Below the pieces are notes generated by a model. That model saw nothing but the letters and a program-made list of their open reading frames with translations. It did no database searches and was not told the DNA's origin. Both the position numbers and the translations under genes were made by a program. Below, one piece after another: positions 1,223 to 37,193 of a stretch of DNA of 64,000 nt (positions are counted from its first letter, which is position 1; every line of letters starts with the position of its first letter). This DNA comes from a virus (Duplodnaviria; Heunggongvirae; Uroviricota; Caudoviricetes): IMG/VR virus record IMGVR_UViG_3300005613_000005, positions 27,213 through 91,212 of that record; one strand, written 5' to 3'.

Positions 1223-1231
1223 TGGTATAAT
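1223..1231 (+). promoter_or_regulatory. extended -10 promoter element TGGTATAAT
   Basis: TGGTATAAT 7 nt upstream of ATG 1238. Confidence 0.4.
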
Positions 1232-1237
1232 ATAAAT

Positions 1238-2386: not shown

Positions 2387-2400
2387 CTTGAACAGCGGCC
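2378..2400. terminator. bidirectional hairpin between convergent genes
   Basis: GGCCGCTG-acttgaa-CAGCGGCC perfect 8-bp stem between HNH gene (+) and sheath gene (-). Confidence 0.5.
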
Positions 2401-2424
2401 TTAAAAGATCTGTATAAGATCGAC

Positions 2425-4635
2425 TTACGCTTCGCTCTGAGCTCTTGTAAGAGTGATCTCGGCCAAGATAAAGTCGATACCTTCGACAAGAACCACGATA
2501 ACGTTTACGTATATGGTATTGCCAGAGATTCTGACCACCAAGTTTTTAAAACCACTTGGTGCATCAGGTGTAGAAACTGTGATACCTTGAGCAAGATAAG
2601 TTGCTAAGATAGATTCACATGTTCCCTTGACCTCTGCAGCAGAAACCGTGTTCTTAACACCAACGTAGATGTTCTCAAGTTGATTCCTGAAGTCATAAGA
2701 AAGAACGTCAGCAGCGTACTGTACGTTGCCTCGATTATATACCCAATTTGCATCTTTGTTATAGGTTGTGTTATCAACAACGACCCTGTATCCACCGCTC
2801 TGAGGTGCTTCTAAGAAAGTAACACCAGCTTGGATAGCTTCGTCATACTGAAGATCAGGATCAAAGTCGGTTACGATGTCTTCTTCAGCCGCACTCATTG
2901 CTTGTGCAGTATGTCTTAGCCCACTGATGTTCATGTACTTGAATGTTAGAGGTGTTCCAATAGGTGATCCACATCTAGCACCAGCGATTATAGCAGATAA
3001 CATGTGAGGCTGGAACCATTTTATAGTTCCGTACGCGTCGACCTGACGGATGTCCTGGCATAGTAACTGGATCCTTGAAGATGCTAAATTACCAACCTGT
3101 GATTTAACTGTATCAAAAGCTGCCTTATAAGCAAGATATCCCTGACGTTCGGATTTAGACTTTGTCGTCGCCATCAAACTCAAGTGAGTCTTGACTGCCT
3201 GATGAACGCCTGCAATAGTGTATGAAGATCCAGAATCCGTTAAACTATCAGCGATATCGTCTGTAGCGTCTCTTGAGAACAGAGGAACAACACAGTTTAC
3301 CCGGAATTTTGTCAGAGCTTCTAGACCCGCAGTTACGTCAGCTGGTATTGTTGCGCCTTTAACACCACCGGTAAGAGCAGCTTCTGTGATAGCACCGATA
3401 CATCCGCTCTGTGTAGGTGATACTGTTAGTTCACTATGGTATACTAAACTTGAATTTCCAAAGAAGTCGATAACTTCACCATAATCTTTCTTGATACCAA
3501 GAGGTTCAGCAGCAGCGTCAGAAGCGACAGCAGGAGCAGTTGTTACATGGTCTAACCAGTCAACTGAAAGCTGTGCATATAAGCTATCTTCTAATGCTGC
3601 GGTCCATTCAGACTGAAGATTAACAGCATCAACTATGTTCTGTATAGTTGGATACTGACTCTTAGGAAGAGTTATGGTACCAGCGTTAGCACCGCCAGTA
3701 GTTATAAGTTCGATGTTGTCGTCGTCGATCGTCACCTGAGCGTTAGACGCCAATGAATCATGGTTACCTATATTAAGGACTATGTTTCCACCGATAGTAT
3801 CTGATTCTGTGATGAGATCGCGTGTCTGATTTATGGTAACAGTATCAGCGTATTCAACACTTGATCTGTTAACGCCCTCTGACAATCCCCATTTTGTCAA
3901 AGCACTTACACCATCATCGTCAACTTCGATAAACAGTCCGTATCCTCTAGCACGGATGTCAGCAGCTGTATTAGAGTCTGTCATCGTGAACACGAGGTTA
4001 TCACTTCCACCATCGCTGCAGACAACGTCTATGTTACCAACAGCTGCTGGTAGCTGACCATCGACAGATGCTACTAAAGCAGTGATATTTGCAGGTGAAC
4101 CGCTTACTGTGATAGTCGTAACAACACCGTTGATGTTGATATTGAATGATCCGTCAACAGCAGCGCCAAATGAACCGATAGTTGAACCAGTTACTATTGG
4201 AGCAACTTGTGACGTAGCTACGCTTTTCACAGTTATCATGTTTCCACCAATTCCCCATTCGATAGCTTTAACTGTTCCATAGTTATTAGCTAAAGACATG
4301 GAAGCTTGAACTGATGAGTTAGTTTTGTAAATATATAGAGCTTGAGCTCCAGAAGGGATGGCCGCATCACTGGCAGGTGCAAACACAAAACTAGCTGCGT
4401 CTACAATAGGTCCACTGATATATTCATCCCTGATCTCGGAAAGTTGCTCTGGGCTGAAGACAACGTTAGCAATATTAGCTTCCTGATCGCCAGGTTTTCC
4501 ACCGTCGGCTTCACCTATGATAGCAACAATTCCTGTAGGACTTAGGGGAAATCCACCACCAAGGTCAATAGAAACCTTAGAATAACTACCCGGTTTGTAT
4601 ATGGTAGCTCCGTTAAAACTTACATTAATTGCCAT
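2425..4635 (-). CDS. tail sheath protein
   Basis: 736 aa; N-terminus INVSFNGATIYKPGSY and C-terminal domain (..GNVQYAADVLSYDFRNQLENIYVGVKNT..LTRAQ) resemble contractile tail sheath family; size typical. Confidence 0.75.
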   Translation of the reverse strand: MAINVSFNGATIYKPGSYSKVSIDLGGGFPLSPTGIVAIIGEADGGKPGDQEANIANVVFSPEQLSEIRDEYISGPIVDAASFVFAPASDAAIPSGAQALYIYKTNSSVQASMSLANNYGTVKAIEWGIGGNMITVKSVATSQVAPIVTGSTIGSFGAAVDGSFNININGVVTTITVSGSPANITALVASVDGQLPAAVGNIDVVCSDGGSDNLVFTMTDSNTAADIRARGYGLFIEVDDDGVSALTKWGLSEGVNRSSVEYADTVTINQTRDLITESDTIGGNIVLNIGNHDSLASNAQVTIDDDNIELITTGGANAGTITLPKSQYPTIQNIVDAVNLQSEWTAALEDSLYAQLSVDWLDHVTTAPAVASDAAAEPLGIKKDYGEVIDFFGNSSLVYHSELTVSPTQSGCIGAITEAALTGGVKGATIPADVTAGLEALTKFRVNCVVPLFSRDATDDIADSLTDSGSSYTIAGVHQAVKTHLSLMATTKSKSERQGYLAYKAAFDTVKSQVGNLASSRIQLLCQDIRQVDAYGTIKWFQPHMLSAIIAGARCGSPIGTPLTFKYMNISGLRHTAQAMSAAEEDIVTDFDPDLQYDEAIQAGVTFLEAPQSGGYRVVVDNTTYNKDANWVYNRGNVQYAADVLSYDFRNQLENIYVGVKNTVSAAEVKGTCESILATYLAQGITVSTPDAPSGFKNLVVRISGNTIYVNVIVVLVEGIDFILAEITLTRAQSEA

Positions 4636-4692
4636 CTGAGGCCTCCTAAATTCTTCTATTAAATACTAATAAATTATAACATACACACTTTG

Positions 4693-4944
4693 TTAAAAAA
4701 TGATTCCGTATTTTTGTAACGCTTCATCGTATTCCTTAAAAGTCGCTGTAGGACCAAGTCCCCATGCCTTGAAATTAGCTAATATAACTTCTTTGGCATG
4801 AAACCTAGGAATTATCCTGCGTCTTTGAGCCCACCAAACGTCAAAATGGACTTCTTTTTCTATAGGTGCAGCTGTACGTTTTTCTTCTTCCATTTTCTTT
4901 ATAGCTTTGATAGGATCTTTTTCTTTCTTTTTACTCTTAGCCAT
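4693..4944 (-). CDS. hypothetical protein (structural module)
   Basis: 83-aa ORF between sheath and upstream structural genes, Lys-rich N-terminus. Confidence 0.45.
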   Translation of the reverse strand: MAKSKKKEKDPIKAIKKMEEEKRTAAPIEKEVHFDVWWAQRRRIIPRFHAKEVILANFKAWGLGPTATFKEYDEALQKYGIIF

Positions 4945-4987
4945 AATTACTCCTTATATCTATTATATAATGCTACCCACCTTATAC

Positions 4988-5671
4988 TTAAGGTACCCGA
5001 CTGTAATCGATGCCGGAATCATCATCGGGATTACTGCCGTCCTCTTCAGTCTCTTGTGAGTCAAAATCAACGTCGGTTTCAACTTCATCAATCTCTATAC
5101 CATCTTGAAATTCCAGAAGATTTTGAGTAGTACATCTAAATCGTATCCAACGTGTCCATATGTTCTCAGCCATGTACTGACTTTCTTTATTATAGTCGGT
5201 AGCACTCCACGTATGTAATCGTAAACCAAGTCTTTCAGCGACCAATTTTTCTTTGTAAAGTATATGAGATATCATATAATATAGCCAAAGTACCATGTCA
5301 CCGGTACGATCCCCGTGGATACCAATATCTACATTAACTGTAAAAACACCAACTGCCGAATCAAAACCATCTCCCATACCAAAAAAGTCACCCATAGCTG
5401 CTTTACCTTCATCCTCACTTTCACTAGCCAAATGAATGCTGATGCTAGGTACTTGTTTAGCATTAAAGCTCCATGCTTGAACAACCGGTATTTCGGTAGT
5501 AGTGAACCAACTCCATATATCATCAATATAAGATTGTCCAAAATCATCGCTGAGATCGTCTGCCGTATATATCATGAAAATATCGTTGAACGCGTCACGA
5601 TCTTCTCGCAAGTTATCTATACCTTGCTTTATGATTTTCTGGAGAATAGCCTCCGGTATGACAAATGCCAT
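4988..5671 (-). CDS. hypothetical tail/neck-region protein
   Basis: 227-aa ORF in structural operon immediately upstream of sheath; acidic C-terminus; start overlaps stop of 5671..6408. Confidence 0.5.
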   Translation of the reverse strand: MAFVIPEAILQKIIKQGIDNLREDRDAFNDIFMIYTADDLSDDFGQSYIDDIWSWFTTTEIPVVQAWSFNAKQVPSISIHLASESEDEGKAAMGDFFGMGDGFDSAVGVFTVNVDIGIHGDRTGDMVLWLYYMISHILYKEKLVAERLGLRLHTWSATDYNKESQYMAENIWTRWIRFRCTTQNLLEFQDGIEIDEVETDVDFDSQETEEDGSNPDDDSGIDYSRVP

Positions 5672-6408
5672 TATCTCAACTCCCTATACTGATCTATGAT
5701 ATCAAGCGTTGCATTTTCGATATCTTGATCTATGCGATCATTGATATCAATAAGCGCGCCTGTCATATCCATCTTCTTACCAGGGTGAACCCACTGTGTT
5801 TGAGGATTTTGTTTATCGGTCGCTGTTCTGAAGCGCACGGCACCGGTACCTTGTTCGGCAGTGTTTATCGCCTGTCGTCTACTCTCTAAAAATGATTTTG
5901 CTTTACTAAATCCTGTAATCTCCATAGTTCCTCTAAATGATCCTGTTCTCCTGGCATTATCCCTTTCTAACTTGCGCTGTTGAACTTTTTGTCTTCGTTC
6001 CTCGTTCGCTCGTGCTCTCATATCAAATATGTTAGTAGTTCCAGCAGATGTTTTTTCTTTTATCGGTATGTTCTGATATCGTGTACCATCTTTAGCTACT
6101 TTAGCGGTTTTCAATATCTTTGGCAGCATCGGAAACGGTGGTTCTGAAAAATCTGTTTTTCCTGATGACGTACCCAAACGGTATGAAGAAGCGTCTCGCA
6201 TAACTTGCAATTCTTCAACAAACTTGTCAGCACCTATTGCTTCACCGATTTGTGCTGCTTCTAGCATAGCATTGTCTAGTATCTCTTCAACAGCTGCGTT
6301 GATATCATTGCGTGCTAGTTCTATAACATAATCAATATCATTCCAGTCATATCCTTTCCAGCGCAAATCTTCTTTTAACCTATCAAGTTCAAATTCAACG
6401 TTAATCAT
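5671..6408 (-). CDS. hypothetical structural-module protein
   Basis: 245-aa ORF translationally coupled to neighbours. Confidence 0.5.
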   Translation of the reverse strand: MINVEFELDRLKEDLRWKGYDWNDIDYVIELARNDINAAVEEILDNAMLEAAQIGEAIGADKFVEELQVMRDASSYRLGTSSGKTDFSEPPFPMLPKILKTAKVAKDGTRYQNIPIKEKTSAGTTNIFDMRARANEERRQKVQQRKLERDNARRTGSFRGTMEITGFSKAKSFLESRRQAINTAEQGTGAVRFRTATDKQNPQTQWVHPGKKMDMTGALIDINDRIDQDIENATLDIIDQYRELR

Positions 6409-7957
6409 CTATATCAACTTCCCTTGTTTTTCTGATGACACGCGCTTTCATGTCATTGAGGAAGTTTTCTTGATCTAGATGATTCCAATCGTTGGCAAAA
6501 GTAATCCGTATTTTTCCACTAGGAGCGATCTCAATACTAGGTTTTGACAAATAACAGTAGTCGTTGTTCAACAGATCGCGTGATCTAGCAGGGTTTGCAG
6601 ATACAGCCTCAACAGAGACCGGAGCATTACTGAGTTCATCTACTTTCTGTTGAAGTTGTAGTAGCTTTTGTTCTATCTCGTCCAAGTCGTTGCCAGCATC
6701 TGCGTTTAGTTTATTGTGTTGATCAACTAAATGATGCATAGTATTTTCAAGTCGATCAAAGAGTTTCATTATGCGTTTTTCAACTTGCTGAAGATCAACT
6801 GCCATACCGTTTCGTATCTCTTCTCGTATATTCTCAACTTCCTGATATATGTTGGCGATGTTATGACGCTTGTGGTTGTCGATCAAGATGTTTAGACCGC
6901 CGTTTATCGCATCATCGCTCAAGTGTTCCTCACTTAATAATTCTAGGTCTGGTTCATCTTCCGGTAGATACCACTCGAACACGCTCATGAGTTCTGCTGT
7001 CAGTTGAGGAAGTGTTTTATTGGTAAACTGATGTATTACCTTGTGTCCGTCTTCAACACGACCAGAATACATATCGTTAACGTGCTTTCTTATAGCTATC
7101 ATGTAATGATCAAAATGCAGTTGACGAAACTCTTCGTCTTTCATACCTTTGACAGCGTTGTTTATTATACGAAAAGCACCATTGCCTACTAATCTCAAAG
7201 CTTCACCATGACTCACTTCAATGACACCTTCACCTTGACCCATAGTGGTTCGCTTGATGTTCTTCTCTAATTTTTCTTTAGTTAGCATGTACGAAAGACT
7301 TTTTTTGAAATGACAGAAAGGGCTGTCTAGATAAGCTTCTAGCGAAACGCGACAGCATTCACGTAATCTGTCATCATCTATTATCAAACTTGGTTCCATG
7401 AAACGTAAGTTTTTAACTTCTGATTTCTGAGGTTTCATCCTTCCTTTATATGAGTTGCAGAAAAACGATTTACAGTCGTTACCGTTATCTTGAAAACTGT
7501 TTATCTCATGTAGTTCATTAGCTACTAGATTAACCTCTTCTCTCATCTCGCGATGAGCGCCTTCTTCAAAAGTCTCGTCAAAGTTCACGTGTCCGCCAGG
7601 AAAAAGTAACTTGCCGTCGTTGACATCTTCGCCGCACAATATCTTACCGTTTTTATCCACTACTATTACTCCAGCACCTTTGCCTTTATAATATTGTTCA
7701 AACGCTTTTCTTAACTTAGTTTTCTTTTTCTTACGCTCTATCCTAGCTTCTTTTACTTTTTCTTTAGCCCGTGCATGATGGCCTTCTCCCCATGTTCCAC
7801 CAGTATTACTTCCAGATTGTTCCGGCGCATCTTTACCAGGTGACTTATATTTTCCTGCTATCGATTTAGGCGGCGTTCCTCTCGGATGCGAAAACGATTT
7901 GCCATGCAATATCGCCTGCATAAATCTGAATTGCTTTTTACTAACAGCTTTTGGCAT
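6401..7957 (-). CDS. Nudix hydrolase domain protein (518 aa) in structural module
   Basis: Near-perfect Nudix box GHVNFDETFEEGAHREMREEVNL (G-x5-E-x7-REUxEExNU; only the last Gly replaced by Asn); basic N-terminus; coiled-coil-like C-terminal region. Confidence 0.65.
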   Translation of the reverse strand: MPKAVSKKQFRFMQAILHGKSFSHPRGTPPKSIAGKYKSPGKDAPEQSGSNTGGTWGEGHHARAKEKVKEARIERKKKKTKLRKAFEQYYKGKGAGVIVVDKNGKILCGEDVNDGKLLFPGGHVNFDETFEEGAHREMREEVNLVANELHEINSFQDNGNDCKSFFCNSYKGRMKPQKSEVKNLRFMEPSLIIDDDRLRECCRVSLEAYLDSPFCHFKKSLSYMLTKEKLEKNIKRTTMGQGEGVIEVSHGEALRLVGNGAFRIINNAVKGMKDEEFRQLHFDHYMIAIRKHVNDMYSGRVEDGHKVIHQFTNKTLPQLTAELMSVFEWYLPEDEPDLELLSEEHLSDDAINGGLNILIDNHKRHNIANIYQEVENIREEIRNGMAVDLQQVEKRIMKLFDRLENTMHHLVDQHNKLNADAGNDLDEIEQKLLQLQQKVDELSNAPVSVEAVSANPARSRDLLNNDYCYLSKPSIEIAPSGKIRITFANDWNHLDQENFLNDMKARVIRKTREVDIDD

Positions 7958-8010
7958 TGTTATCTCCTATCAACGTATATCATTATAACTCGCTGATATG
8001 CTCAATATTT

Positions 8011-8805
8011 TTATAACTCATCGGCTATCCGTCTTTTAAAATCTCTCTTAACCAGAACTTCTTGCGGTAAACGACGAGCTGTTTTTGTTCCATCTACCAT
8101 CTCTTGTGTTACTCTAAGTTCACGAAGTGTTTGTAGAACTGTATATACAGGATTAGCATAATATGATACGACCAAAACTGTCCCGCGTTGTGTCGCAGTA
8201 TTGTAGGTTGGTTCTTGTCCTGAAACCCATTCTATCTCACCGCTTACTATATTGAAGTGAGTACCTTCAGTATACGGGGTCAACACGTTGTTTTCTACTG
8301 AAGCTATATAATCTACCGCCGTTATCGGATAACGCATTTTTTGACGACTGTTAGAAGTAGGCTCGTATTCTTTGAGTTCCCAAAGGCGAATTTCAAAATC
8401 TGATATAACTAATTGATCATATTCGTTAAAATCTGCCTGTGTACCGTCTTCATATTCGGCAGGAAACGTTATAACGGCTGTACCGACTTCCCACATACCC
8501 TGTTGTTCAAATAAGCGATCAAGTGAATTTCCGGTGAAGATACCCACTATCTCTTTTTCCTCATAGTACAGTATACCGCTATTATCGCATATCTCACAGT
8601 TTGCAGCGTGTGAGTTATTTTCTAAGCTTCTCATGTTAGGGCATGGTGCAGCACGTCGATGCGTAAACCGTATACCTCTGTTTTCTATGAGTTGATCAAA
8701 CGACAGACCCTTGATACTTGGATCCGGAAGTATACCGGGCATCATAGAAGCCGTTGATTTTGCAGAAGCAGTGAACGTACCGCTTGGTTTAGACATCTTG
8801 GACAT
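8011..8805 (-). CDS. hypothetical protein (first gene of minus-strand structural operon in window)
   Basis: 264-aa ORF preceded on minus strand by TGGTATAAT and AGGAG. Confidence 0.55.
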   Translation of the reverse strand: MSKMSKPSGTFTASAKSTASMMPGILPDPSIKGLSFDQLIENRGIRFTHRRAAPCPNMRSLENNSHAANCEICDNSGILYYEEKEIVGIFTGNSLDRLFEQQGMWEVGTAVITFPAEYEDGTQADFNEYDQLVISDFEIRLWELKEYEPTSNSRQKMRYPITAVDYIASVENNVLTPYTEGTHFNIVSGEIEWVSGQEPTYNTATQRGTVLVVSYYANPVYTVLQTLRELRVTQEMVDGTKTARRLPQEVLVKRDFKRRIADEL

Positions 8806-8830: not shown

Positions 8831-8894
8831 CTTGAAAAGCTTATGCTATATTAATGATAAAACCGTCGATTTTAAAATATTGTATAATATAACA

Positions 8895-9152
8895 ATGGAT
8901 GCCAAACAAATATTGGAAAAAATTATAGAAAATGATGGTAGCTGTGAATGGACTATGACATTAAGAGAAAATATATGTGAACAATGTCCTTTCTCACGCG
9001 ACAAGAATGGTAAGTTAATCTCATGCGTTGACCATATCGTGGGTAATCAGATAACAAACAGTGAAAAACAGATCAACAAATTATATAAACAAGCCGCTGA
9101 ACAACGCCTCACGGATTTACTTATGGAGGAAATGCTCAGTGGATCTAAGTGA
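8895..9152 (+). CDS. small Cys-rich protein (EQCPF motif), paralog 1
   Basis: ORF trimmed to ATG 8895 (MDAKQILEKIIENDGSCEW...ICEQCPFSRDKNG); motif shared with next gene. Confidence 0.5.
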   Translation: MDAKQILEKIIENDGSCEWTMTLRENICEQCPFSRDKNGKLISCVDHIVGNQITNSEKQINKLYKQAAEQRLTDLLMEEMLSGSK

Positions 9153-9354
9153 TAAAGATAAGAAGATATTAGAAGAGATAGTAAAACTTAACGGAAACTG
9201 TTTGGATGGGCGTCCAAGATGTGAGCAATGTCCTTTCAGATCAATATGCTTACCTGAATTTCTAAACCCATTTCCGTTGTCAAAAAATGTTCGTTTAGAG
9301 ATGGCGTTGAAGATATTGGTGCATCATGCCGTCTTTGAGGACGACGATGAGTAA
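9139..9354 (+). CDS. small Cys-rich protein (EQCPF motif), paralog 2
   Basis: Tentative GTG start 9139 (..DKKILEEIVKLNGNCLDGRPRCEQCPFRSIC); aligned start with paralog 1. Confidence 0.4.
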   Translation: MDLSDKDKKILEEIVKLNGNCLDGRPRCEQCPFRSICLPEFLNPFPLSKNVRLEMALKILVHHAVFEDDDE

Positions 9355-9535
9355 GCTAGACGAATACATAAAACAATTTTTTGGAACGCCGCTCACTAGA
9401 AGAATATTGATATACAATTATTTCACCATCGTTGCCAAAGCAGCAGGTTGGAAAGGCAACATAAACGGGAGACGTTTGACAGATGACTTCAAGAGAAAAG
9501 AGAACTCGAGAGCTGTTAAAAAGCATGAGCCATGA
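9326..9535 (+). CDS. hypothetical small protein
   Basis: 69-aa ORF, coupled to neighbours. Confidence 0.3.
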   Translation: MPSLRTTMSKLDEYIKQFFGTPLTRRILIYNYFTIVAKAAGWKGNINGRRLTDDFKRKENSRAVKKHEP

Positions 9536-9665
9536 TGAGATCCATGAAGTTCTAAAGTTATGTGAACCAGACAGGATATTGCTGAGCATGCGCAAGTACG
9601 GGTTTCAACCAGATAAAAAGATAGTGATGGAATATCTGGTCGACGAGATATTACTGGTATCGTGA
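9483..9665 (+). CDS. hypothetical small protein
   Basis: 60-aa ORF; weak LKLCEPDRILL motif. Confidence 0.3.
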   Translation: MTSREKRTRELLKSMSHDEIHEVLKLCEPDRILLSMRKYGFQPDKKIVMEYLVDEILLVS

Positions 9666-9666
9666 T

Positions 9667-9933
9667 ATGATTAAAAGTATCATGAGTAAATTAGCGTTAA
9701 CTTTAGAAGAAGCTACTAAAGCTGATAAATTAGCAAACGACGATTGCGCGTGTTGGTGGAATCTTTGTCTTTTATTAGAAAAACTACAGATATTAGAAGA
9801 TAAAAGCATGATAACATCGTCAGAACTGTACTCGTTCAATTTTTATCGTGAGATGGTACACTTAAAAACAATACGTCCAGATCTTATGTCACAGATAGTC
9901 GCGGCACTAAATAATTTTGGTAAATACGCGTAA
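9667..9933 (+). CDS. small protein, LLxxLxVI-motif family
   Basis: contains NLCLLLEKLQILED. Confidence 0.5.
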   Translation: MIKSIMSKLALTLEEATKADKLANDDCACWWNLCLLLEKLQILEDKSMITSSELYSFNFYREMVHLKTIRPDLMSQIVAALNNFGKYA

Positions 9934-9970
9934 ACAACGTCCGTTCACGTATCATTAGTATAATGGTGAT

Positions 9971-10201
9971 ATGTCTATCAATAAAGACAAATACAAAAAT
10001 GATTACATGAGTATAGAAATTTTGGGTAAGTCTCAGTTAACAGGTGAATATTGTGTCCAGATAAAAGTAACGTCACGACAATACAAGAACGCGTTGAACG
10101 ATCTTGGAACCCACACGACCTGCTATCCTTTAACGCAGAACGCCTGGTATTCTGAAAAACAGTTGAAAGATATCTTTAAACGCTATAACCTTAGGAGATG
10201 A
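9971..10201 (+). CDS. hypothetical protein
   Basis: 76-aa ORF; TATAAT upstream at ~9960. Confidence 0.5.
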   Translation: MSINKDKYKNDYMSIEILGKSQLTGEYCVQIKVTSRQYKNALNDLGTHTTCYPLTQNAWYSEKQLKDIFKRYNLRR

Positions 10202-10202
10202 T

Positions 10203-10499
10203 ATGAAGACAAATCTTATCGCTCTGCGTCGTCTGGACGTTTCCGATTCCGACAATCCAACTTATTACACTTACTATATCCATGGAGAAAAACGCAGGGG
10301 GTGTTTTCACAGGTGTCGCAAGGAACATCTTGTTGGTGACACGAGCATACGTCAAACCAAAGGTACCTTATATGAGGTACGCGTTCACGAAGAACTCGAC
10401 TGGAAAACGGTCGGCAGAGGAGAGTTTGGTCTATGGTTGTCTAGTTTTAACGCTATACGGAAAGAACGAGGTTGGGAACCTATAGTTTTAAGTGATTAA
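10203..10499 (+). CDS. hypothetical protein
   Basis: 98-aa ORF, start 2 nt after previous stop. Confidence 0.5.
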   Translation: MKTNLIALRRLDVSDSDNPTYYTYYIHGEKRRGCFHRCRKEHLVGDTSIRQTKGTLYEVRVHEELDWKTVGRGEFGLWLSSFNAIRKERGWEPIVLSD

Positions 10500-10521
10500 C
10501 TTATAACTCAAAAAAAGTTTT

Positions 10522-10743
10522 ATGATGGAAAGATGGTGCAACAATTTTATGTCAGGTCCTGAACTTGGTATATTAAACTTGTTGTGTGAGTTAAAAATCA
10601 TAAGTGAAACCGTGCGAGCTAATGTAGCAAGCCAGATAGCGTTAGACCGGTTGATGGAATCGATAGAGCGACAAGTATTTAAGAATATGTACGCCAGTCC
10701 CAGTCTTGATGGCTTAGAAAAAATATTGAAAGATGCGACTTAA
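10522..10743 (+). CDS. small protein, LLxxLxVI-motif family
   Basis: LGILNLLCELKIISE. Confidence 0.5.
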   Translation: MMERWCNNFMSGPELGILNLLCELKIISETVRANVASQIALDRLMESIERQVFKNMYASPSLDGLEKILKDAT

Positions 10744-10918
10744 CTATAAAAAGATGTTAGACAAAGCGCAGAAGATAGAAACCATTAACGATTTCATACA
10801 CCTTTTATCGATGTTGGAGGTGATAACACCCATGCGAGCTTTCATATACTCTTCTACTATAGAAGTATACTTTAACCAGCACATAATACCGTGGTGGTCA
10901 TGCGAGGAGGAAGAATAG
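10733..10918 (+). CDS. small protein, LLxxLxVI-motif family
   Basis: FIHLLSMLEVITP. Confidence 0.5.
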   Translation: MRLNYKKMLDKAQKIETINDFIHLLSMLEVITPMRAFIYSSTIEVYFNQHIIPWWSCEEEE

Positions 10919-11085
10919 TGCCGGGACACTACTATTTCAGTGAAGATACCTGGAACATGATAGAAGCGATATACGACCTTCCCGTGTACATCAAACTGGG
11001 ATGCCACTACGAAGCTTATCTGGAAGAGTACATAGAATTTCTAGATCTTCTAGAGGTGTTCAACGCGGGGGAATATGAAGCCTAA
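10891..11085 (+). CDS. small protein, LLxxLxVI-motif family
   Basis: YIEFLDLLEVFNA; true start may be GTG 10918 after GAGGAGG. Confidence 0.45.
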   Translation: MVVMRGGRIVPGHYYFSEDTWNMIEAIYDLPVYIKLGCHYEAYLEEYIEFLDLLEVFNAGEYEA

Positions 11086-11299
11086 GATTATCACGGGTGC
11101 TAGCGCTCGCTTCATGATCAACGGACAACCCGTAGCGTACGCTAAAAACGTGACTTATAGACCTCCAGAAGACGATCTCATGCGTTTCTTCAGCGTGCTG
11201 GTTAAATTATCGATCATCGATGCAGAAACGATACGGGGAATATGGTACGAGCATCAACTCATGACAAACACTGTTAATTACGGTCAATATAAAGTATGA
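11075..11299 (+). CDS. small protein, LLxxLxVI-motif family (divergent)
   Basis: FFSVLVKLSIIDA. Confidence 0.45.
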   Translation: MKPKIITGASARFMINGQPVAYAKNVTYRPPEDDLMRFFSVLVKLSIIDAETIRGIWYEHQLMTNTVNYGQYKV

Positions 11300-11364
11300 A
11301 CTATAGTTCCTGATTAAAATTTTGGGGCCCCCTGGTATGTAAGTTAATTTGGAGTTAAACTCAG

Positions 11365-11541
11365 ATGGTACTATCAAAAACTTTTAACGGCTGTAACATA
11401 TATCCTCCCGGTGTATACCTTGGTATACCGTCTTCAATGGCATACGATCTGCTGATTTTACTGTATAAATTCAACGTGATAACTAGACACGAGGTACGCT
11501 ACATCGACGCCCTGATACGCGCACGTTTCGGTATAATATAA
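11365..11541 (+). CDS. small protein, LLxxLxVI-motif family
   Basis: 58-aa ORF below ORF-track cutoff; AYDLLILLYKFNVITR. Confidence 0.45.
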   Translation: MVLSKTFNGCNIYPPGVYLGIPSSMAYDLLILLYKFNVITRHEVRYIDALIRARFGII

Positions 11542-11543
11542 AC

Positions 11544-11720
11544 ATGATAAAAGAAATTGAGATACCGTATTCATCACCGTTGTACCTATTCCGCTTCGAC
11601 CGCTTCTTGGACCTCTTAGAAAAACTGAGGGTGATACGGTCGTATACCGAGGGCGGTCAATGCTCGCCCCCGTACAAGATATCATACGTGTACGACGTGG
11701 AGATCGACGATGATAGATAA
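11544..11720 (+). CDS. small protein, LLxxLxVI-motif family
   Basis: 58 aa; FDRFLDLLEKLRVIRS; GGTATAAT upstream. Confidence 0.45.
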   Translation: MIKEIEIPYSSPLYLFRFDRFLDLLEKLRVIRSYTEGGQCSPPYKISYVYDVEIDDDR

Positions 11721-11868
11721 CGTCAAGATATGGCGCGGCAATCCAGCAGCAGAGTGCTTGATAAACTACTTTGAGATGGTACGAAACGGCGGAAACTTTT
11801 CCTCAGCCTGCGACCTCGTCAAAGTTTTAATATTGCTGAACGTGATAAAGAACAAGAGGCCACGATGA
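11710..11868 (+). CDS. small protein, LLxxLxVI-motif family
   Basis: 52 aa; DLVKVLILLNVIKN; start overlaps previous stop. Confidence 0.4.
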   Translation: MIDNVKIWRGNPAAECLINYFEMVRNGGNFSSACDLVKVLILLNVIKNKRPR

Positions 11869-12059
11869 AGAGATACGAGCACCTGCGAGAATACAGCATC
11901 CCGCTGCACGACATACACGTCCCGACGATAGAAGAGCGAAAAGAACAACTGCACCTTATAGTACACTTCCTAGAAATATTAAAACACCTCGAAGTCATCC
12001 ACGATTTCGAGATATTGGTCAACTGGGCTTTCACCTACGACCTGAGGATATGGAGATGA
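11865..12059 (+). CDS. small protein, LLxxLxVI-motif family
   Basis: LHLIVHFLEILKHLEVIHD; ATGA overlap with previous. Confidence 0.5.
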   Translation: MKRYEHLREYSIPLHDIHVPTIEERKEQLHLIVHFLEILKHLEVIHDFEILVNWAFTYDLRIWR

Positions 12060-12361
12060 TGAGAGAACAAGAGACCCTAAAAGCTATCACCGTAGACGAC
12101 CTGATCCGCCTACTGCACCGCTTGCAGGTGTTCAACTCCGACGAGTATTTGTGGGAGTGGGTGCCGGACGCTTTCGGGGGTGAGGGTGCCGGGATACCGA
12201 TCAAGATCGAGCGCGTGTCCGTGCGCGGTACTGACCATCGAACGATGTCCGCGGTGGGTGATTTCATGAACCTATTAACTAAATTTGAAGTTATTCGACT
12301 TCGCAGTTTTGAGTGGACGACTTCAGGATATGGCATAGACGTGAAGGTGGAGTTGTACTGA
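12050..12361 (+). CDS. small protein with two LLxxLxVI-type motifs
   Basis: LIRLLHRLQVFNS and FMNLLTKFEVIRL. Confidence 0.5.
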   Translation: MEMMREQETLKAITVDDLIRLLHRLQVFNSDEYLWEWVPDAFGGEGAGIPIKIERVSVRGTDHRTMSAVGDFMNLLTKFEVIRLRSFEWTTSGYGIDVKVELY

Positions 12362-12591
12362 TGACGAACGACGACTGGAGCACGGTGTTCGAGGAGCAGT
12401 TTCGGCTGAGGGCCGATATAAGCTCGTTCTTGAGCGCTTTGTACCTGCTCAAGGTCATCGAGGCTCACCACATCAAGGTAACGATGCAGAACCTCAACAT
12501 ACGCAGCGGTGCGCTCGATCCCTGGTGCAACACGATCACGGAGCGCAGCGCCGACGGCCAGATCATAAAAGTAACGAGGACGGACGTATGA
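12361..12591 (+). CDS. small protein, LLxxLxVI-motif family
   Basis: start trimmed to ATG 12361 (ATGA coupling); FLSALYLLKVIEA. Confidence 0.5.
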   Translation: MTNDDWSTVFEEQFRLRADISSFLSALYLLKVIEAHHIKVTMQNLNIRSGALDPWCNTITERSADGQIIKVTRTDV

Positions 12592-12755
12592 GCTGGTCTC
12601 GGGACATAGAACGCCGCCACGAGCTCATGAACGACATGTTCGAGCTCATGGACCTGCTGCTGGGACTAGAGGTGATCGACAAGGACCATATGGTGGTCGT
12701 AGCTCATTTCTGCATAACCAAGCGAAAGCTCCTGGACCGCTGGAAGAAAGATTAA
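12588..12755 (+). CDS. small protein, LLxxLxVI-motif family
   Basis: start trimmed to ATG 12588 (ATGA coupling); MFELMDLLLGLEVIDK. Confidence 0.5.
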   Translation: MSWSRDIERRHELMNDMFELMDLLLGLEVIDKDHMVVVAHFCITKRKLLDRWKKD

Positions 12756-12758
12756 AAC

Positions 12759-12896
12759 GTGGACCTCAGCTTTTCAGACAAGCAGACCGCATACGACTTC
12801 CTGCGTTTCCTTCGCAGGCTCGGCGCGATAGATGAGTGTTGCTTCTTTTTTGTCGCCTATGAGATGGGCTGCCGCAACTGGGTGTCAGAGATATAA
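12759..12896 (+). CDS. small protein, LLxxLxVI-motif family (GTG start, tentative)
   Basis: AYDFLRFLRRLGAIDE. Confidence 0.3.
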   Translation: MDLSFSDKQTAYDFLRFLRRLGAIDECCFFFVAYEMGCRNWVSEI

Positions 12897-12898
12897 CC

Positions 12899-13018
12899 GT
12901 GGGTACTGATTGGTGTTGGATATTCGATGACCCGCTGCAGAGGCTGTGCTTGTTGAGCGATCTCGGGGTCATAGATTTCGGCACGTTTGAACGAGTCATC
13001 AACGAGATCATGCGATAA
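12899..13018 (+). CDS. small protein, LLxxLxVI-motif family (GTG start, tentative)
   Basis: LQRLCLLSDLGVIDF. Confidence 0.3.
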   Translation: MGTDWCWIFDDPLQRLCLLSDLGVIDFGTFERVINEIMR

Positions 13019-13294
13019 AAATACCAGTAAATTTATATAAATATATATATAGGAAGGTACCGGTACCTTTGCGAGGATATAGTACGTTAGGCCACCGGGC
13101 CCTGTTCTAAAAGAAAAAGCTCGCGCTCGCAGTAGGCTGGCGGGGTACTCGGTACCGACGTGAAGCTTCCTTTTGTTAGTCGAGGCCGGCCGGTACCAGC
13201 CGAAACGAGATGTGCTGCGAGCTGTCATGGCCTCGACCACCGTCAAACGACCGACACGACAGCTCAGACGAGAGACAAAGTTAAGGAGGTCAGT

Positions 13295-13411
13295 ATGGGA
13301 GATAACTTCAGGTTCTACTACTATCTCTACCTGGAAGCTGAGCGGAGCGGTTGCGAGATGACCATGGACTGCTGCCTGATGATGATGAGGTTCTACCGAG
13401 ACGAGTACTGA
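13295..13411 (+). CDS. 38-aa Cys/Met/Tyr-rich peptide
   Basis: AAGGAGG 7 nt upstream of ATG; MGDNFRFYYYLYLEAERSGCEMTMDCCLMMMRFYRDEY. Confidence 0.4.
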   Translation: MGDNFRFYYYLYLEAERSGCEMTMDCCLMMMRFYRDEY

Positions 13412-13449
13412 CCGGACGAAACAGGTATTTAAAACTGAAGGAGGTATTT

Positions 13450-13962
13450 ATGAACCAGAGAGAAGCGGTCTACAAGGCAACCCATGCCGTGCTGAAGGAA
13501 GCCGGCATCAGCTTCGAGGACTATCAAGATGGAGGAGTGAAGGACATCGTGACCGACGAGATGAGGAAGCAGATCATCGGGATCGTGTGCGAGGGTTTCA
13601 AGACTGGTGAGGTGGAGTTGAAGGACACCGAGGCGAACAAGTCAAAGCTCGCCAACGAGAGCGAGCTGAGAGCCTACACCTCTGGCCTGGTGAGCAACTG
13701 GCACCGGAAGGACAAGTGCTTCAACGGGAACGAGACCTACAAGGCCAAGAATCCCGGGAGCAGGGCCGGTCAAGGGGACACGCAGATGAAGAACCTCAAG
13801 CTACTCAAGAAGAAGTTCGAGAACGATCCTCAGAAGATCAAGGACATAGACGCTGCCATCAGCAAGAGGACCGAAGAGCTGAGAGCTGCCAGGACCAAGA
13901 CCATCGAGGTCGACTGGAACGAGATACCGGAAGAGCTAAGGACAGCACTTAAAAGCGAGTAA
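13450..13962 (+). CDS. MNQREAVY-family protein, paralog 1
   Basis: GAAGGAGG SD; start trimmed to ATG 13450; shared blocks SGLVSNW.RKD..FNGN..Y.AKNPGSRAGQGD.QMKNL.LL.K. Confidence 0.65.
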   Translation: MNQREAVYKATHAVLKEAGISFEDYQDGGVKDIVTDEMRKQIIGIVCEGFKTGEVELKDTEANKSKLANESELRAYTSGLVSNWHRKDKCFNGNETYKAKNPGSRAGQGDTQMKNLKLLKKKFENDPQKIKDIDAAISKRTEELRAARTKTIEVDWNEIPEELRTALKSE

Positions 13963-13975
13963 GTTAAGCTAAGAC

Positions 13976-13997
13976 GGGCAGGACCGAGGTCCTGCCC
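13976..13997 (+). terminator. GC-rich hairpin downstream of paralog 1
   Basis: GGGCAGGA-ccgagg-TCCTGCCC; no T-tract, so terminator function uncertain. Confidence 0.35.
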
Positions 13998-14001
13998 TCA
14001 A

Positions 14002-14017
14002 TTGACACTGCTACGCC
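14002..14017 (+). repeat. 16-nt conserved motif TTGACACTGCTACGCC (copy 1 of 4)
   Basis: near-identical copies at 14669, 15297, 30414, each after a gene end/hairpin. Confidence 0.7.
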
Positions 14018-14027
14018 GGGGAGCTCT

Positions 14028-14040
14028 GACCGATCCGATA
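14028..14040 (+). promoter_or_regulatory. phage-specific upstream motif GACCGATCCGATA
   Basis: CCGATCCGA core 32 nt upstream of ATG 14060; recurs upstream of many + strand genes. Confidence 0.5.
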
Positions 14041-14059
14041 GGTCTGCTAGGAGGTGGTT

Positions 14060-14236
14060 ATGAAGAACACGATAGTCATAGACTACATGAGGCGAGAGTT
14101 CATACGGTTCGAGACCGAGAACGGCGACGTTCGCTACCTGTTGTACCTGCCGCTGGGAGCTGTCATAAGTCCTGACATAGACACTATCAAGGCGATCATT
14201 GAAGAGGATGTTGAGTATTTGAAGATCGCGGCTTAA
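14060..14236 (+). CDS. hypothetical protein
   Basis: GGAGGTGG SD; ATG 14060. Confidence 0.5.
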   Translation: MKNTIVIDYMRREFIRFETENGDVRYLLYLPLGAVISPDIDTIKAIIEEDVEYLKIAA

Positions 14237-14247
14237 GTTAAGGGTCG

Positions 14248-14445
14248 GTGATGTCTAACCCCCGTCACCGACCACTTTTTCTGGAACCGAAACGATCAGT
14301 TATCGATGATGAGACCTACAGAGAGTCTGGCTGCCACGAGCGTCGAGCAGCAATGGTAGCGATCTCTGACTGCGATAACGGGCAGGTGTCTTCGCAGCGC
14401 CTGCCCACCTTTTGGAGGGATTATGAAGATACCGATATGGATTAA
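14248..14445 (+). CDS. hypothetical protein
   Basis: 65-aa ORF. Confidence 0.4.
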   Translation: MMSNPRHRPLFLEPKRSVIDDETYRESGCHERRAAMVAISDCDNGQVSSQRLPTFWRDYEDTDMD

Positions 14446-14668
14446 AGTTAAAGACTGGAAGATCTATTTCTCGATGTGGGATACTCTGAACTGGGAGTCG
14501 ATAGACTACGATGAGCTGCACTTCTACTATGAGGATCCCAGATATTCCGTTCACGTGGTAGAATAATCTTATGGGTCGTGAGACCCAGCCGGACCAAAGT
14601 TCTGAGCCAGGAACTCGAGGACTTTACTGTCGGGCGCGTCCGGCGCCCGCAGGTTTCCCTTCAAAACA

Positions 14669-14684
14669 CTGACACTGTTACGCC
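14669..14684 (+). repeat. 16-nt motif CTGACACTGTTACGCC (copy 2)
   Basis: preceded by hairpin CGGGCGC-gtccg-GCGCCCG. Confidence 0.7.
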
Positions 14685-14697
14685 CCAGCCGCCGCTC

Positions 14698-14710
14698 GAC
14701 CGATCCGACC
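14698..14710 (+). promoter_or_regulatory. upstream motif GACCGATCCGACC
   Basis: 52 nt upstream of ATG 14750. Confidence 0.45.
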
Positions 14711-14749
14711 TCTAGTCAGAACAAACAAGAAACTTTAAAGGAGGTTAAC

Positions 14750-15256
14750 ATGAACCAGAGAGAAGCAGTCTACACCATCACACACTCCATCCTCAAAGAG
14801 CATGGGGTAACTTTCGAAGACGGGGACAACATCAGTTCCGTCATGACTGACGAGTACCGCAAGCAGATCATCGAAGCGATCGTCACCAGTTTCCAGTCCG
14901 GCAAGATCGACTTCAAAGATACTCAAGCGAACCAGGAAAAATTAGGTGACGTGAGCAAGCTCCGCAGCTATACTTCCGGTCTCGTGAGCAACTGGTTCCG
15001 CAAGGACCCTCGCTTCAACGGCAACGTCAAGTATGAAGCCAAGAACCCAGGTTCAAGGGCAGGTCAAGGCGACGCGCAGATGAAAAACTTAAGGCTCCTC
15101 AAGAAACAGTACGAGGGGACAGACAAGGTAAAAGACATAGACGCCGCCATAGCCGACCGCACCGCCGAGCTCAGGGCTGCCAAGGCCAAGAAAGTTGAAG
15201 TAGACTACACAGCGATACCCGAAGAACTCAAGGAAGCTCTCGGCATCACCGAATAG
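14750..15256 (+). CDS. MNQREAVY-family protein, paralog 2
   Basis: AAAGGAGG SD; ~60% identical to paralogs 1 and 3. Confidence 0.65.
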   Translation: MNQREAVYTITHSILKEHGVTFEDGDNISSVMTDEYRKQIIEAIVTSFQSGKIDFKDTQANQEKLGDVSKLRSYTSGLVSNWFRKDPRFNGNVKYEAKNPGSRAGQGDAQMKNLRLLKKQYEGTDKVKDIDAAIADRTAELRAAKAKKVEVDYTAIPEELKEALGITE

Positions 15257-15296
15257 GTCAAGATACAGCCGGCCGCAGGTCAACCGCTTGCGGCCA

Positions 15297-15312
15297 CTGA
15301 CACTGCTACGCC
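15297..15312 (+). repeat. 16-nt motif CTGACACTGCTACGCC (copy 3)
   Basis: preceded by hairpin GGCCGCA..TGCGGCC. Confidence 0.7.
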
Positions 15313-15595
15313 TACCGACCCCGGCCGCTCCCGGCTAGGGACCTGAGTGGGCCAACGTCGGTCAGCTCGCAGCCGCCCTCTCCATCTAATAATTTAAACA
15401 AAACGTACCCCAAAACCCCCTAGGGAAAGACGGACCTCCACCGATCCTCACCGTCCCTGACAGGGCTCCGGTGCTGGCCCTCGTCGGTCAAGTTCTTTCT
15501 AAGTTAGTTAGCTTGCAACAGTCTGTGAGCCGCCCCACCCCCGCCCCTTGCTGTCTTTTGATCTAATAAAATCAAGGGCTTACATGGCCTTATGC

Positions 15596-15610
15596 AACCG
15601 ATCCGAATTA
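15596..15610 (+). promoter_or_regulatory. upstream motif AACCGATCCGAATTA
   Basis: 30 nt upstream of ATG 15626. Confidence 0.45.
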
Positions 15611-15625
15611 TCCTCGAGGTGGTGC

Positions 15626-15901
15626 ATGAGTAAGCTGCAAGTAGTGGGAATAGAGTCCCTGGAAAGTCTACCACGAGTAGTTGCCTGGTGGCTGCGGTGT
15701 AGTTCAAGGTTAAGTTCTGTAGAAGCTGCTGCTAGGATTCCTGGTCCGAGGTTGCTGGAGAAGTTGTATGAGTTCTTGACCACGGTAGACGTAGAAATGT
15801 TTCGCAGCGGATATGGCTCTAGAAACCGTGATGCTAAAGCTTACGATGTTCACTTAGAGGTCTTGTTCGATGAGATTTTGAGGAGAAGGGTATTATGGTA
15901 G
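15626..15901 (+). CDS. hypothetical protein
   Basis: ORF trimmed to ATG 15626 downstream of motif and GAGGTGG. Confidence 0.45.
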   Translation: MSKLQVVGIESLESLPRVVAWWLRCSSRLSSVEAAARIPGPRLLEKLYEFLTTVDVEMFRSGYGSRNRDAKAYDVHLEVLFDEILRRRVLW

Positions 15902-16059
15902 AAACTTTATTCTGGGGCGTGTTGGTGTTGAGCTGTCTGGTGATAAGCAGATGCATCACCGGCCTGACGCTGTGCTGGTTTGAATACGGTCGTATAGGGA
16001 AGATGATAGACGACCGAGCGGTTTCAAAGGGAGAGTACCGTGAAAAAAATAGGGGCTGA
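15895..16059 (+). CDS. small hydrophobic protein (tentative)
   Basis: 54-aa ORF MVETLFWGVLVLSCLVISRCITGLTLCWF..; overlaps next gene start. Confidence 0.3.
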   Translation: MVETLFWGVLVLSCLVISRCITGLTLCWFEYGRIGKMIDDRAVSKGEYREKNRG

Positions 16060-36712: not shown

Positions 36713-37063
36713 TTGGGACGTAGTAAGTACACAGATAAAGAGATAGAATTGTTAGATAAATTAAAACATGAAAATAGAAAACTCAAAAGAGCATTGAAAG
36801 CCGCGCGCAAGATGCTCGACAGGTATCAGGTAGCTGAAAAAAAAGGTCTGATTGAAGAAGACATAATAGTACCCAGTAAAAAACGTCAGAAAGAGAAAGA
36901 ACTTCGTGACAAATGGCAGTGCTACGAGTGCGATGGTGGCATTCTAGAGCTGATAATCGTTGGCAACCGTTATTTCAGGAAATGCAATGTGTGTGGCAAA
37001 CACACGCGTTCTCAGATATGGGACGAATCAGTAGAAGGGATTCGCGCTAAGTCTCGCGGATAG
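36713..37063 (+). CDS. coiled-coil / zinc-finger protein
   Basis: CYECDGG...CNVCG. Confidence 0.5.
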   Translation: MGRSKYTDKEIELLDKLKHENRKLKRALKAARKMLDRYQVAEKKGLIEEDIIVPSKKRQKEKELRDKWQCYECDGGILELIIVGNRYFRKCNVCGKHTRSQIWDESVEGIRAKSRG

Positions 37064-37193
37064 CTTCTTCATATTCCCAATATGCAATCTGCAGATCATC
37101 GACTATATCATAAAGAACATCGCTGTGTATTATCTTAAGTTTATACAGTAGTCGTACTAGTTCAGCCGCTTGCCAGACTTTTTCATACCTCAT
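37047..37193 (-). CDS. small protein, LLxxLxVI-motif family (outlier copy)
   Basis: 48-aa reverse ORF MRYEKVWQAAELVRLLYKLKIIHSD... Confidence 0.3.
   Translation of the reverse strand: MRYEKVWQAAELVRLLYKLKIIHSDVLYDIVDDLQIAYWEYEEAIRET

Follow-up and report, generated by a model that had tools for sequence, protein, structure and literature searches.

The host-takeover module of the Bacillus phage SPO1 is a cluster of 26 small genes (PMC6873191). Here, we describe a locus of similar layout in a 64,000-nucleotide (nt) stretch, hereafter the window, of the ENA metagenome contig ERZ27256772:k141_2301005 (157,173 bp), which belongs to a tailed phage, a large uncultivated myovirus. The locus is an array of 14 plus-strand open reading frames (ORFs) of 39-103 amino acids (aa) at positions 9667-13018, which together carry 15 copies of a short helical motif, and a 16th copy lies on the minus strand outside the array. 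We interpret the array as a diverged tandem family of paralogous helical-hairpin mini-proteins in a phage accessory island, a reading to which we assign a probability of roughly 0.55. Like the SPO1 module, the array is a dense, one-strand cluster of very small, mostly orphan genes in a large lytic myovirus, and both clusters lie outside the structural module, that of SPO1 behind its own promoters and this one with promoter-like sites. The two differ in that the array has no sequence similarity to the SPO1 module (PHROGs) and in that early timing and host shut-off are demonstrated for SPO1, whereas for the present locus they are putative. To our knowledge, the SPO1 takeover genes are not one paralogous family and have no common motif.

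Several other systems resemble the array in part. In anti-defence and anti-CRISPR loci, conserved flanking genes likewise bracket small genes that differ in every relative, but the known loci hold unrelated proteins, whereas the array members have one motif in common. In phage T4, the internal proteins and Alt also carry a short conserved peptide on otherwise dissimilar small phage proteins. The T4 capsid-targeting signal, however, always sits at the N-terminus, and the prohead protease cuts it off at an L/I-x-E site, whereas the first residue of the array motif can fall anywhere from position 4 to position 68 of a member ORF, which puts the motif at the N-terminus, in the center, or at the C-terminus. 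We ruled out a T4-type capsid-targeting peptide because the position of the motif is not fixed and no cleavage site is conserved (Glu precedes V-I in only 5/16 window copies, and Gly occupies the turn in 23/48 copies from relatives). Rop-like hairpins, which dimerize to four-helix bundles, resemble the predicted hairpin of about 48 aa of the minimal member, and its best, non-significant structural neighbors are oligomerizing hairpins, but no sequence match and no significant structural match was found. Finally, the multigene families (MGF) of African swine fever virus and the terminal families of poxviruses are tandem arrays of fast-diverging paralogues in variable regions, with gain and loss between strains. 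These eukaryotic DNA virus proteins are much larger, belong to another host domain, and have no homology to the array, and the comparison is one of analogy only.

A motif common to tandem small genes

The motif spans 13-17 residues with the pattern [DN]-[FL]-h-x-[LF]-L-x-x-L-x-[VI]-[IF]-polar and is the sole part common to all members. It describes a capped amphipathic helix and the turn that follows, with Asp or Asn as the N-cap, hydrophobic residues at positions 4, 5, 7, 8, and 11, then x-[VI]-[IF], and a polar residue that caps the next helix. In the composition-matched shuffling that a preliminary description of this locus had proposed as its own check, a regular expression of the form given there finds 12 matches in the 1181 aa of the array, compared with a mean of 0.11 and a maximum of 3 in 20,000 within-protein shuffles. 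Over the plus strand of the whole window, 12/19 matches of the same expression fall inside the 3.7-kb array, and none falls on the minus strand there. Because the motif is too short for HMMER statistics, we scored it with a position matrix and region controls; a hidden Markov model iterated from a 17-residue seed on the local ORF set shrank. The matrix was built from the 15 array copies, leaving out the copy in ORF 37047-37193, and it gives that unlinked site, 37169(-), 24.6 bits, compared with 11.9 bits for the next-best site outside the array. In leave-one-out scoring, 9/15 copies are outscored by at most 2 of 54,396 outside positions, while the weakest two, at 9754 and 10561, are outscored by 133 and 439, respectively. 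A test independent of the motif gives the same picture: all-against-all Smith-Waterman scores average 26.2, versus 21.5 +/- 0.44 for shuffled sequences (z = 10.9), and the invariant Leu is in register in the best local alignment of 61/105 member pairs.

In some pairs, the similarity extends beyond the motif. The neighboring members 12361-12591 and 12588-12755, whose longest ORFs begin at 12313 and 12525, can be aligned along some 55 aa, and residues outside the motif are also common to the pairs 10891/12050 and 10733/12050 (named by the starts of their longest ORFs). The 103-aa ORF 12050-12361 carries two copies, which is why 14 ORFs hold 15, and it is matched as two domains, as if two units of ordinary size had been fused. 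The similarity of neighbors beyond the motif and this fused-looking ORF argue for duplication and divergence in at least part of the family. Similarity that is above chance, in register, and in some pairs wider than the motif is what characterizes a tandem paralogue family.

Conservation acts on the translated proteins. When the 16 copies are aligned by codon, the first two positions of the codons hold most of the information (up to 2.0 bits), with 0.02-0.75 bits at third positions, which argues for constraint on the protein rather than on the DNA, and the motif leucines are encoded by CTN as well as TTR codons. The array region contains no direct repeat of more than about 29 nt and has no Rfam match. 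Across the GC-rich half, all eight plus-strand ORFs show GC content in the order GC3 > GC1 > GC2 (numbered by codon position), whereas the overlapping minus-strand ORFs mostly do not. The junctions are operon-like, with ATGA or TGATG overlaps at 11865, 12361, and 12588 and gaps or overlaps of +3 to -11 nt elsewhere. The member proteins have a grand average of hydropathy of about -1.0 to +0.6, mixed charge, isoelectric points (pI) of 4.1 to 9.6 (many are acidic, at 4.1-5.2), and no transmembrane character, from which we judge them to be very small soluble proteins.

The preliminary description had reported about 15 small, often ATGA-coupled genes at 9483-13018 and one outlying copy. All 14 motif strings that it quoted are where it placed them, and LMRFFSVLVKLSIIDAE in ORF 11075-11299 is an additional copy. 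The minus-strand copy at 37047-37193 is real, the ATGA coupling holds at the three junctions above, and the view of the genes as a small-protein family agrees with the constraint at the protein level and with the extended similarity of some neighbors, which indicates tandem duplication. Its count and interval needed adjustment: the family does lie within 9483-13018, but with 14 motif ORFs rather than about 15, and 9483 is the start of a non-member gene. Three ORFs within this interval (9483-9665, 9971-10201, and 10203-10499) are not clear members (Table 1). A further ORF at 9326-9535 (+; 69 aa) overlaps both of its neighbors and is probably not a gene: in the closest relative, the flanking genes adjoin each other and nothing corresponds to it. 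Two motif-like sites elsewhere in the window are too weak for membership: a 53-aa ORF at 59837-59998 (+) with an N-terminal hydrophobic helix and a C-terminal KVVILLEKLKIF, and a 98-aa ORF at 46680-46976 (+) with DDVVNFLLEEKIIDKE (14 bits).

Table 1. Array members, neighboring genes, and promoter-like sites in the window. L009, L011, and L049 are loci of related phages; motif positions are nt positions in the window.
Feature	Position	Strand	Length (aa)	Motif (position)	Remarks
Promoter-like GTATAAT	8882..8888	+			6 nt before ATG 8895; ahead of CxxC genes at arm head
Non-member gene	9483..9665	+	60		No motif; homologues in L009, L011, and L049 (52% identity)
Member 1	9667..9933	+	88	WWNLCLLLEKLQILEDK (9754-9804)	Gene call in source contig
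Promoter-like GTATAAT in array	9958..9964	+			6 nt before ATG 9971
Possible degenerate member	9971..10201	+	76		Trace ALNDLGTH; first gene after GTATAAT-N6-ATG site
Non-member gene in array	10203..10499	+	98		No motif; L049 orthologue 57% identical
Member	10522..10743	+	73	ELGILNLLCELKIISET (10561)	Identical to database protein P0003 of ENA contig k141_2301005
Member	10733..10918	+	61	INDFIHLLSMLEVITPM (10784)	
Member	10900..11085	+	61 (from ATG 10900)	LEEYIEFLDLLEVFNAG (11020)	Motif 7 residues from C-terminus; longest ORF from GTG 10891, source gene call begins 10900
Member	11075..11299	+	74	LMRFFSVLVKLSIIDAE (11177)	Copy absent from preliminary description
Member	11365..11541	+	58	AYDLLILLYKFNVITRH (11440)	Leave-one-out score 20.0 bits
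Promoter-like GTATAAT in array	11531..11537	+			6 nt before ATG 11544
Member	11544..11720	+	58	FDRFLDLLEKLRVIRSY (11595)	First gene after GTATAAT 11531-11537
Member	11710..11868	+	52	ACDLVKVLILLNVIKNK (11806)	Motif 6 residues from C-terminus
Member	11865..12059	+	64	IVHFLEILKHLEVIHDF (11958)	ATGA-coupled to preceding gene
Two-motif member	12050..12361	+	103	VDDLIRLLHRLQVFNSD (12092), VGDFMNLLTKFEVIRLR (12254)	Source gene call
Member	12361..12591	+	76 (from ATG 12361)	ISSFLSALYLLKVIEAH (12418)	TGATG overlap; longest ORF from GTG 12313
Member	12588..12755	+	55 (from ATG 12588)	MFELMDLLLGLEVIDKD (12636)	ATGA overlap; longest ORF from GTG 12525
Member	12759..12896	+	45	AYDFLRFLRRLGAIDEC (12789)	
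Last member of array	12899..13018	+	39	PLQRLCLLSDLGVIDFG (12932)	
Outlying member, minimal short form	37047..37193	-	48	AAELVRLLYKLKIIHSD	

Turnover of the locus among related phages

Relatives of the phage were found with the structural protein encoded at 8011-8805, which yielded 47 IMG/VR and 52 JGI metagenome loci at 46-78% identity on contigs of up to 177 kb. Within the 47 IMG/VR loci, the matrix finds 33 hits of at least 14 bits in the 233 kb upstream of the structural gene and none in the 421 kb downstream, which hold structural genes. The ORFs with these hits are small (about 38-140 aa), and the 48 distinct copies give the consensus x-[DNR]-L-[LIM]-x-L-L-x-K-L-G-[VI]-x-S-A. The Lys at motif position 10 is found in 29/48 of these copies, Asp or Asn is conserved at position 3, and the turn Gly in 23/48 is followed by an S/T-A helix N-cap. 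The window copies represent a variant that mostly lacks the Gly, has V-I, and makes a turn that is one residue longer. In some relatives, the motif follows CxxC...CxxC modules (L007:7090, L012:2262, L020:775, L040:8054, and L041:3508). The outlier and several of the relatives' proteins have a short form of 45-55 aa, in which 8-12 residues precede the motif and an S/T/D cap and then a second helix follow it. The outlier is the sole minus-strand ORF in the gap ahead of the ribonucleotide reductase gene, and it has a weak homologue in another relative (L022, E = 1.4e-5).

The closest relative, L049, has 78% identity in the structural protein, and its locus covers only 3.7 kb. Its first six genes are in the same order as in the window at 47-65% identity, compared with 78% for the structural protein, from which it follows that these genes are real, are under purifying selection, and diverge faster than the structural genes. 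Member 9667-9933 is the only one with a detected orthologue (L049:623-895(-), 51% identity), in which the motif is kept as LWKLVLLLEKLCIISNE. The possible degenerate member 9971-10201 is not detected by the matrix, and in its L049 orthologue (47% identity), the corresponding segment of the alignment is KELLAKLGEIE. For the members from 10522 to 13018, phmmer finds no full-length orthologue in the 47 IMG/VR loci, and two members searched directly in IMG/VR gave no match. Since most members lack an orthologue in the sampled relatives, the region is hypervariable. The fast diversification proposed in the preliminary description is borne out by these comparisons, and judging from the gene content of the relatives, the content of the array turns over between lineages. 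Strand orientation also varies: in L007 (6900-8100), L040 (5700-9400), L041 (7100-9000), and L043 (4600-7600), the motif ORFs are opposite in strand to the conserved flanking genes, whereas in the window they are co-directional with them. The strand switch implies that the segment seems to have been inverted or reassembled between lineages.

The conserved flanking genes in question are a CxxC pair at 8832-9152 and 9061-9354 on one side of the hypervariable segment and a multi-copy gene at 13351-13962 on the other. The CxxC genes (+) are adjacent paralogues (ILEKIIENDGSC...CEQCPF and ILEEIVKLNGNC...CEQCPF) that lie directly beside the virion protein gene, divergent from it, and are conserved in most relatives. 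In Pfam, they have only a weak, sub-threshold match to the endonuclease III iron-sulfur loop, and a search of JGI metagenomes with a CxxC gene found none. The multi-copy gene (203 aa) belongs to a family of 167-203 aa with further plus-strand copies at 14750-15256, 20346-20849, and 47018-47548 and a core of GLVSNWxRKDxRFNGNxKYxAKNPGSRAGQGD. One to three copies occur in nearly every relative, interleaved with the small-gene arrays, and the family has no match in Pfam or PHROG. We dropped a kinship between the motif and the N-terminus of this family (AVLKEHGI), as the near-invariant Leu at motif position 11 is His or Ala there. In another relative, L002, three tandem genes of MORN-like repeats (YYEDGSIESERWYLDDKCHRIDGPA...) lie at 2907-4383 (-) beside its small-gene region.

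Base composition also changes along the array, as had been noted in the preliminary description. GC3 rises from 0.30 in ORF 9667 to 0.82 in ORF 12361 and continues at 0.6-0.8 through the next two conserved genes (13351-15256). This gradient from AT-rich to GC-rich is real, but alone it does not imply the long-term diversification that had been read from it. The window-type variant of the motif occurs in both halves, the GC of the relatives ranges from 37 to 53%, and mosaic acquisition from a GC-richer relative would explain the gradient at least as well as in-place diversification. A GC-rich block of about 52% in a genome of about 40% GC extends over 11500-16000, starting in the middle of the array and spanning two of the 203-aa paralogues.

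Predicted fold, family searches, and alternative readings

Searches of several kinds place the motif outside known families, as had been claimed at the outset. Ten window members scanned singly against curated families gave nothing below E = 0.01. When 57 members from the window and its relatives were compared with Pfam-A, PHROGs v4, and NCBIfam, each matched family was hit by one member only, at best E values of 0.0026 (PHROGs), 0.015 (Pfam), and 0.027 (NCBIfam). A 20-sequence profile run against 1.84 billion representative proteins recovered only the four input proteins and the 103-aa ORF of the window, although in so large a database a motif this short could not become significant, and absence elsewhere is therefore not proven by this result. 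Word-indexed protein searches returned either the query alone or 6 weak matches (E = 0.2-3.4), all from the same phage clade, and a sequence profile search of the PDB gave chance matches only, such as the turn between transmembrane helices 6 and 7 of the angiotensin receptor and the pyrin domain of IFI16 (E >= 0.15). No known anti-defence family was detected, though no dedicated anti-defence library was searched. With no match to any known family, the members constitute, as far as these comparisons reach, a new protein family of a familiar kind, that is, a phage accessory island of small, fast-evolving genes.

For the 48-aa outlier, AlphaFold2 was given an alignment of the window paralogue fragments and four proteins of the clade, and it predicts a two-helix hairpin (predicted local distance difference test score, pLDDT, 91; predicted template modeling score 0.61) with helices at residues 2-18 and 24-47 and a loop at 19-23. 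The motif forms the last two turns of helix 1 and the loop L-K-I-I-H. Foldseek searches with this model gave nothing significant (best E = 2.0 in the PDB and 0.7 in BFVD), because the fold is too simple to be diagnostic; the closest non-significant shapes are designed homo-oligomers, the ESCRT-I core, the serine-integrase coiled coil, and uncharacterized small phage proteins.

We propose that the family has grown by tandem duplication, fusion, and exchange with related phages, and that the sequence outside the motif helix would evolve too fast to keep orthology across the clade. The motif unit would supply the last part of helix 1 and the loop in a two-helix hairpin, for which the 48-aa member would represent the minimal form. 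A hairpin this small is unlikely to be stable alone, as its hydrophobic face would normally be buried by pairing, and hence, the members most likely pair. They could form four-helix bundles with themselves or with other members, or they could pack into a helical groove of a target. Through its hydrophobic face and its conserved Lys and Asp/Asn, the motif helix may then provide a constant contact surface, while the variable second helix and tails would set specificity.

A number of observations weigh against this proposal. Most member pairs have no similarity outside the motif, and descent of every member from one ancestor is not proven. The alignment behind the hairpin model is anchored on the motif, a helical hairpin is the default or easy output for such sequences, and a single-sequence AlphaFold2 model of the 103-aa member is unusable (pLDDT 44). 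In several members, the motif ends 0-7 residues from the C-terminus, so that a role as helix 1 of the hairpin fails for these, and the partner helix must be upstream there. Finally, the source pipeline called only about 5/14 motif ORFs as genes. This last point, together with the very short length of the ORFs, is also what speaks for an artefact, in which the ORFs are not genes and the pattern arises from a repeated DNA or RNA signal or from base composition. We consider this very improbable, as third codon positions are free and leucine codon families mixed, the region lacks both the long direct repeats and the Rfam match that such a signal might leave, the enrichment holds against composition-matched shuffles, GC by codon position follows the pattern of coding sequence, relatives of differing GC carry the motif as well and in that region only, and orthologues of the first genes are conserved in L049.

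An unlikely but more substantial alternative is that the motif is a portable docking helix, a short linear module carried by unrelated small proteins that bind one common partner, in which case the array would be a set of cargo rather than of true paralogues. The partner could be a hub protein of the host, a protease or chaperone of the phage, or the prohead, which would permit co-injection in the manner of the T4 internal proteins with their capsid-targeting sequence. The limitation of conservation to about 13 residues, the N-terminal, central, or extreme C-terminal placement of the motif, and the unrelated N-terminal modules, including CxxC...CxxC, that precede it in relatives are all consistent with such a module, and the conserved polar residues (Lys at position 10 and Asp/Asn at position 3) suggest a specific contact, for which the three ClpP-like paralogues and the S8 peptidase of the phage are possible partners. 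Yet several neighbors are similar beyond the motif, the two-motif ORF looks like two fused units of normal size, and neither the variable position of the motif nor its lack of a conserved L-x-E cleavage site is what known N-terminal targeting peptides would lead one to expect. In a related and equally doubtful form, the 13-residue helix would be a portable address label on changing tiny effectors throughout the clade, docking on one hub or forming mixed four-helix bundles; the hub may be a host protein or a phage-encoded ClpP-like protease or chaperone. If this were true, the label would be a phage counterpart of the targeting motifs shared by effectors of eukaryotic pathogens. Less probable still is that the members are small DNA-binding regulators, with the motif covering helix 2, the turn after it, and the first part of helix 3 in a degenerate helix-turn-helix (HTH) or helix-hairpin-helix (HhH) domain, which would make the array a set of many small transcription factors or nucleoid binders. 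The string LLxKLG[VI]xSA can be likened to the classic h-A-x-x-h-G-h-S pattern, the turn Gly and S/T-A cap in relatives would suit such a turn, and the predicted model is helix-loop-helix. However, the Pfam models for HTH, HhH, SAP, HeH, and Rho_N give no recurrent hit among the 57 members at E values up to 10, and the Leu-to-Gly spacing of the consensus differs from the SAP, HeH, Rho_N, and HhH patterns (L-x-x-L...G-h-x-x-x-G-x-K and G-h-G-x-x-x-A). The window copies mostly lack the Gly and have the longer turn, many members are acidic, and no HTH fold was matched significantly in the fold searches. For the 48-aa member, the predicted model contains two helices rather than three. In members that end 0-7 residues after the motif, a recognition helix is impossible.

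Genome setting and implications

The array lies between the minus-strand tail-sheath/virion module and the nucleotide-metabolism arm of the genome. The structural block (555-8805) includes the tail sheath gene (2425-4635) and the virion protein gene (8011-8805) and is followed by a long plus-strand arm with many small ORFs, which also encodes a radical SAM protein (24298-24849), an S8 subtilase-type peptidase (30496-31167), a ribonucleotide reductase, an ATP-dependent DNA ligase, three ClpP-like proteases, 22 tRNA genes, and an RNase P RNA. By sequence comparison, we found no cultured close relative of the phage. Megablast of the array against 50,697 phage records gave no match. The tail sheath matches distant cultured phages only, among them Myxococcus phage Mx1 with 30% identity, and the DNA ligase reaches about 32% identity with its counterparts in SPO1-like Bacillus phages. 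SPO1-like phages are among the distant matches of both the tail sheath and the ligase, at about 25-32% identity.

The heptamer GTATAAT occurs at 31 sites in the window, compared with 11 +/- 3 expected, and in at least 10 cases exactly 6 nt separate it from the ATG or GTG start codon of an ORF downstream, with a spacing of 7 nt in two more. Besides the sites listed in Table 1, examples are found at 1225, 30201, 42504, 53039, and 59073 (+) and at 56295 (-). A -10 box so placed would start transcription at or next to the start codon, which implies leaderless mRNAs, and the phage thus appears to make wide use of these. In a scan with sigma-70 promoter and terminator consensus sequences, the counts did not exceed those expected from shuffles. 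With its small one-strand genes, its place away from the structural modules, and its promoter-like sites, the array has the layout of a host-takeover or early accessory cluster. Its position at the head of the non-structural arm and the GTATAAT-N6-ATG sites would place it in an early region, as the preliminary description had assumed. From this position, the promoter-like sites, and the turnover of the genes, the members would, by analogy above all with the SPO1 module, most likely serve as accessory proteins for host interference or anti-defence, the kind of role to which the preliminary description had also pointed.

Several other genes in the window deserve mention. The ClpP-like genes, which also resemble head-maturation proteases, are paralogous and lie at 41481-42182 (+), 42608-43540 (+), and 54260-55120 (-), the first two being adjacent in the non-structural arm. 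Within the structural module, a 518-aa protein encoded at 6401-7957 (-) contains a NUDIX hydrolase domain (residues ~88-160) and has a weak match to a portal-protein PHROG; tblastn with this protein gave no match. The ribonucleotide reductase large subunit (879 aa, 37337-39976, +) has an insert with a LAGLIDADG-type motif (FIAGLFDADGNY), which, as read from the translation, is apparently an intein with a homing endonuclease. The RNase P RNA, of bacterial class A, lies at 49047-49346 (+) inside the cluster of 22 tRNA genes, flanked by tRNA-Phe and tRNA-Ser. It matches Rfam RF00010 with 179.6 bits (gathering score 100; E = 2.4e-56) and covers model positions 1-367 in only 300 nt, making it a shortened form. 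In a literature search, no account of a shortened RNase P ribozyme encoded by a phage came up.

Clusters of tiny orphan genes are a store of many of the tools that phages use for host manipulation and anti-defence, and such genes are usually impossible to group. The motif described here provides a signature that links dozens of them across an uncultivated phage clade from many metagenomes. Standard gene calling misses most such genes, as illustrated by the source assembly, and a helix of the LLxLLxKLG[VI] type, together with the flanking CxxC pair and the 203-aa family, offers a handle for finding further islands. The members also represent a ready natural library of variants on one scaffold for screens against bacterial defences or host targets.

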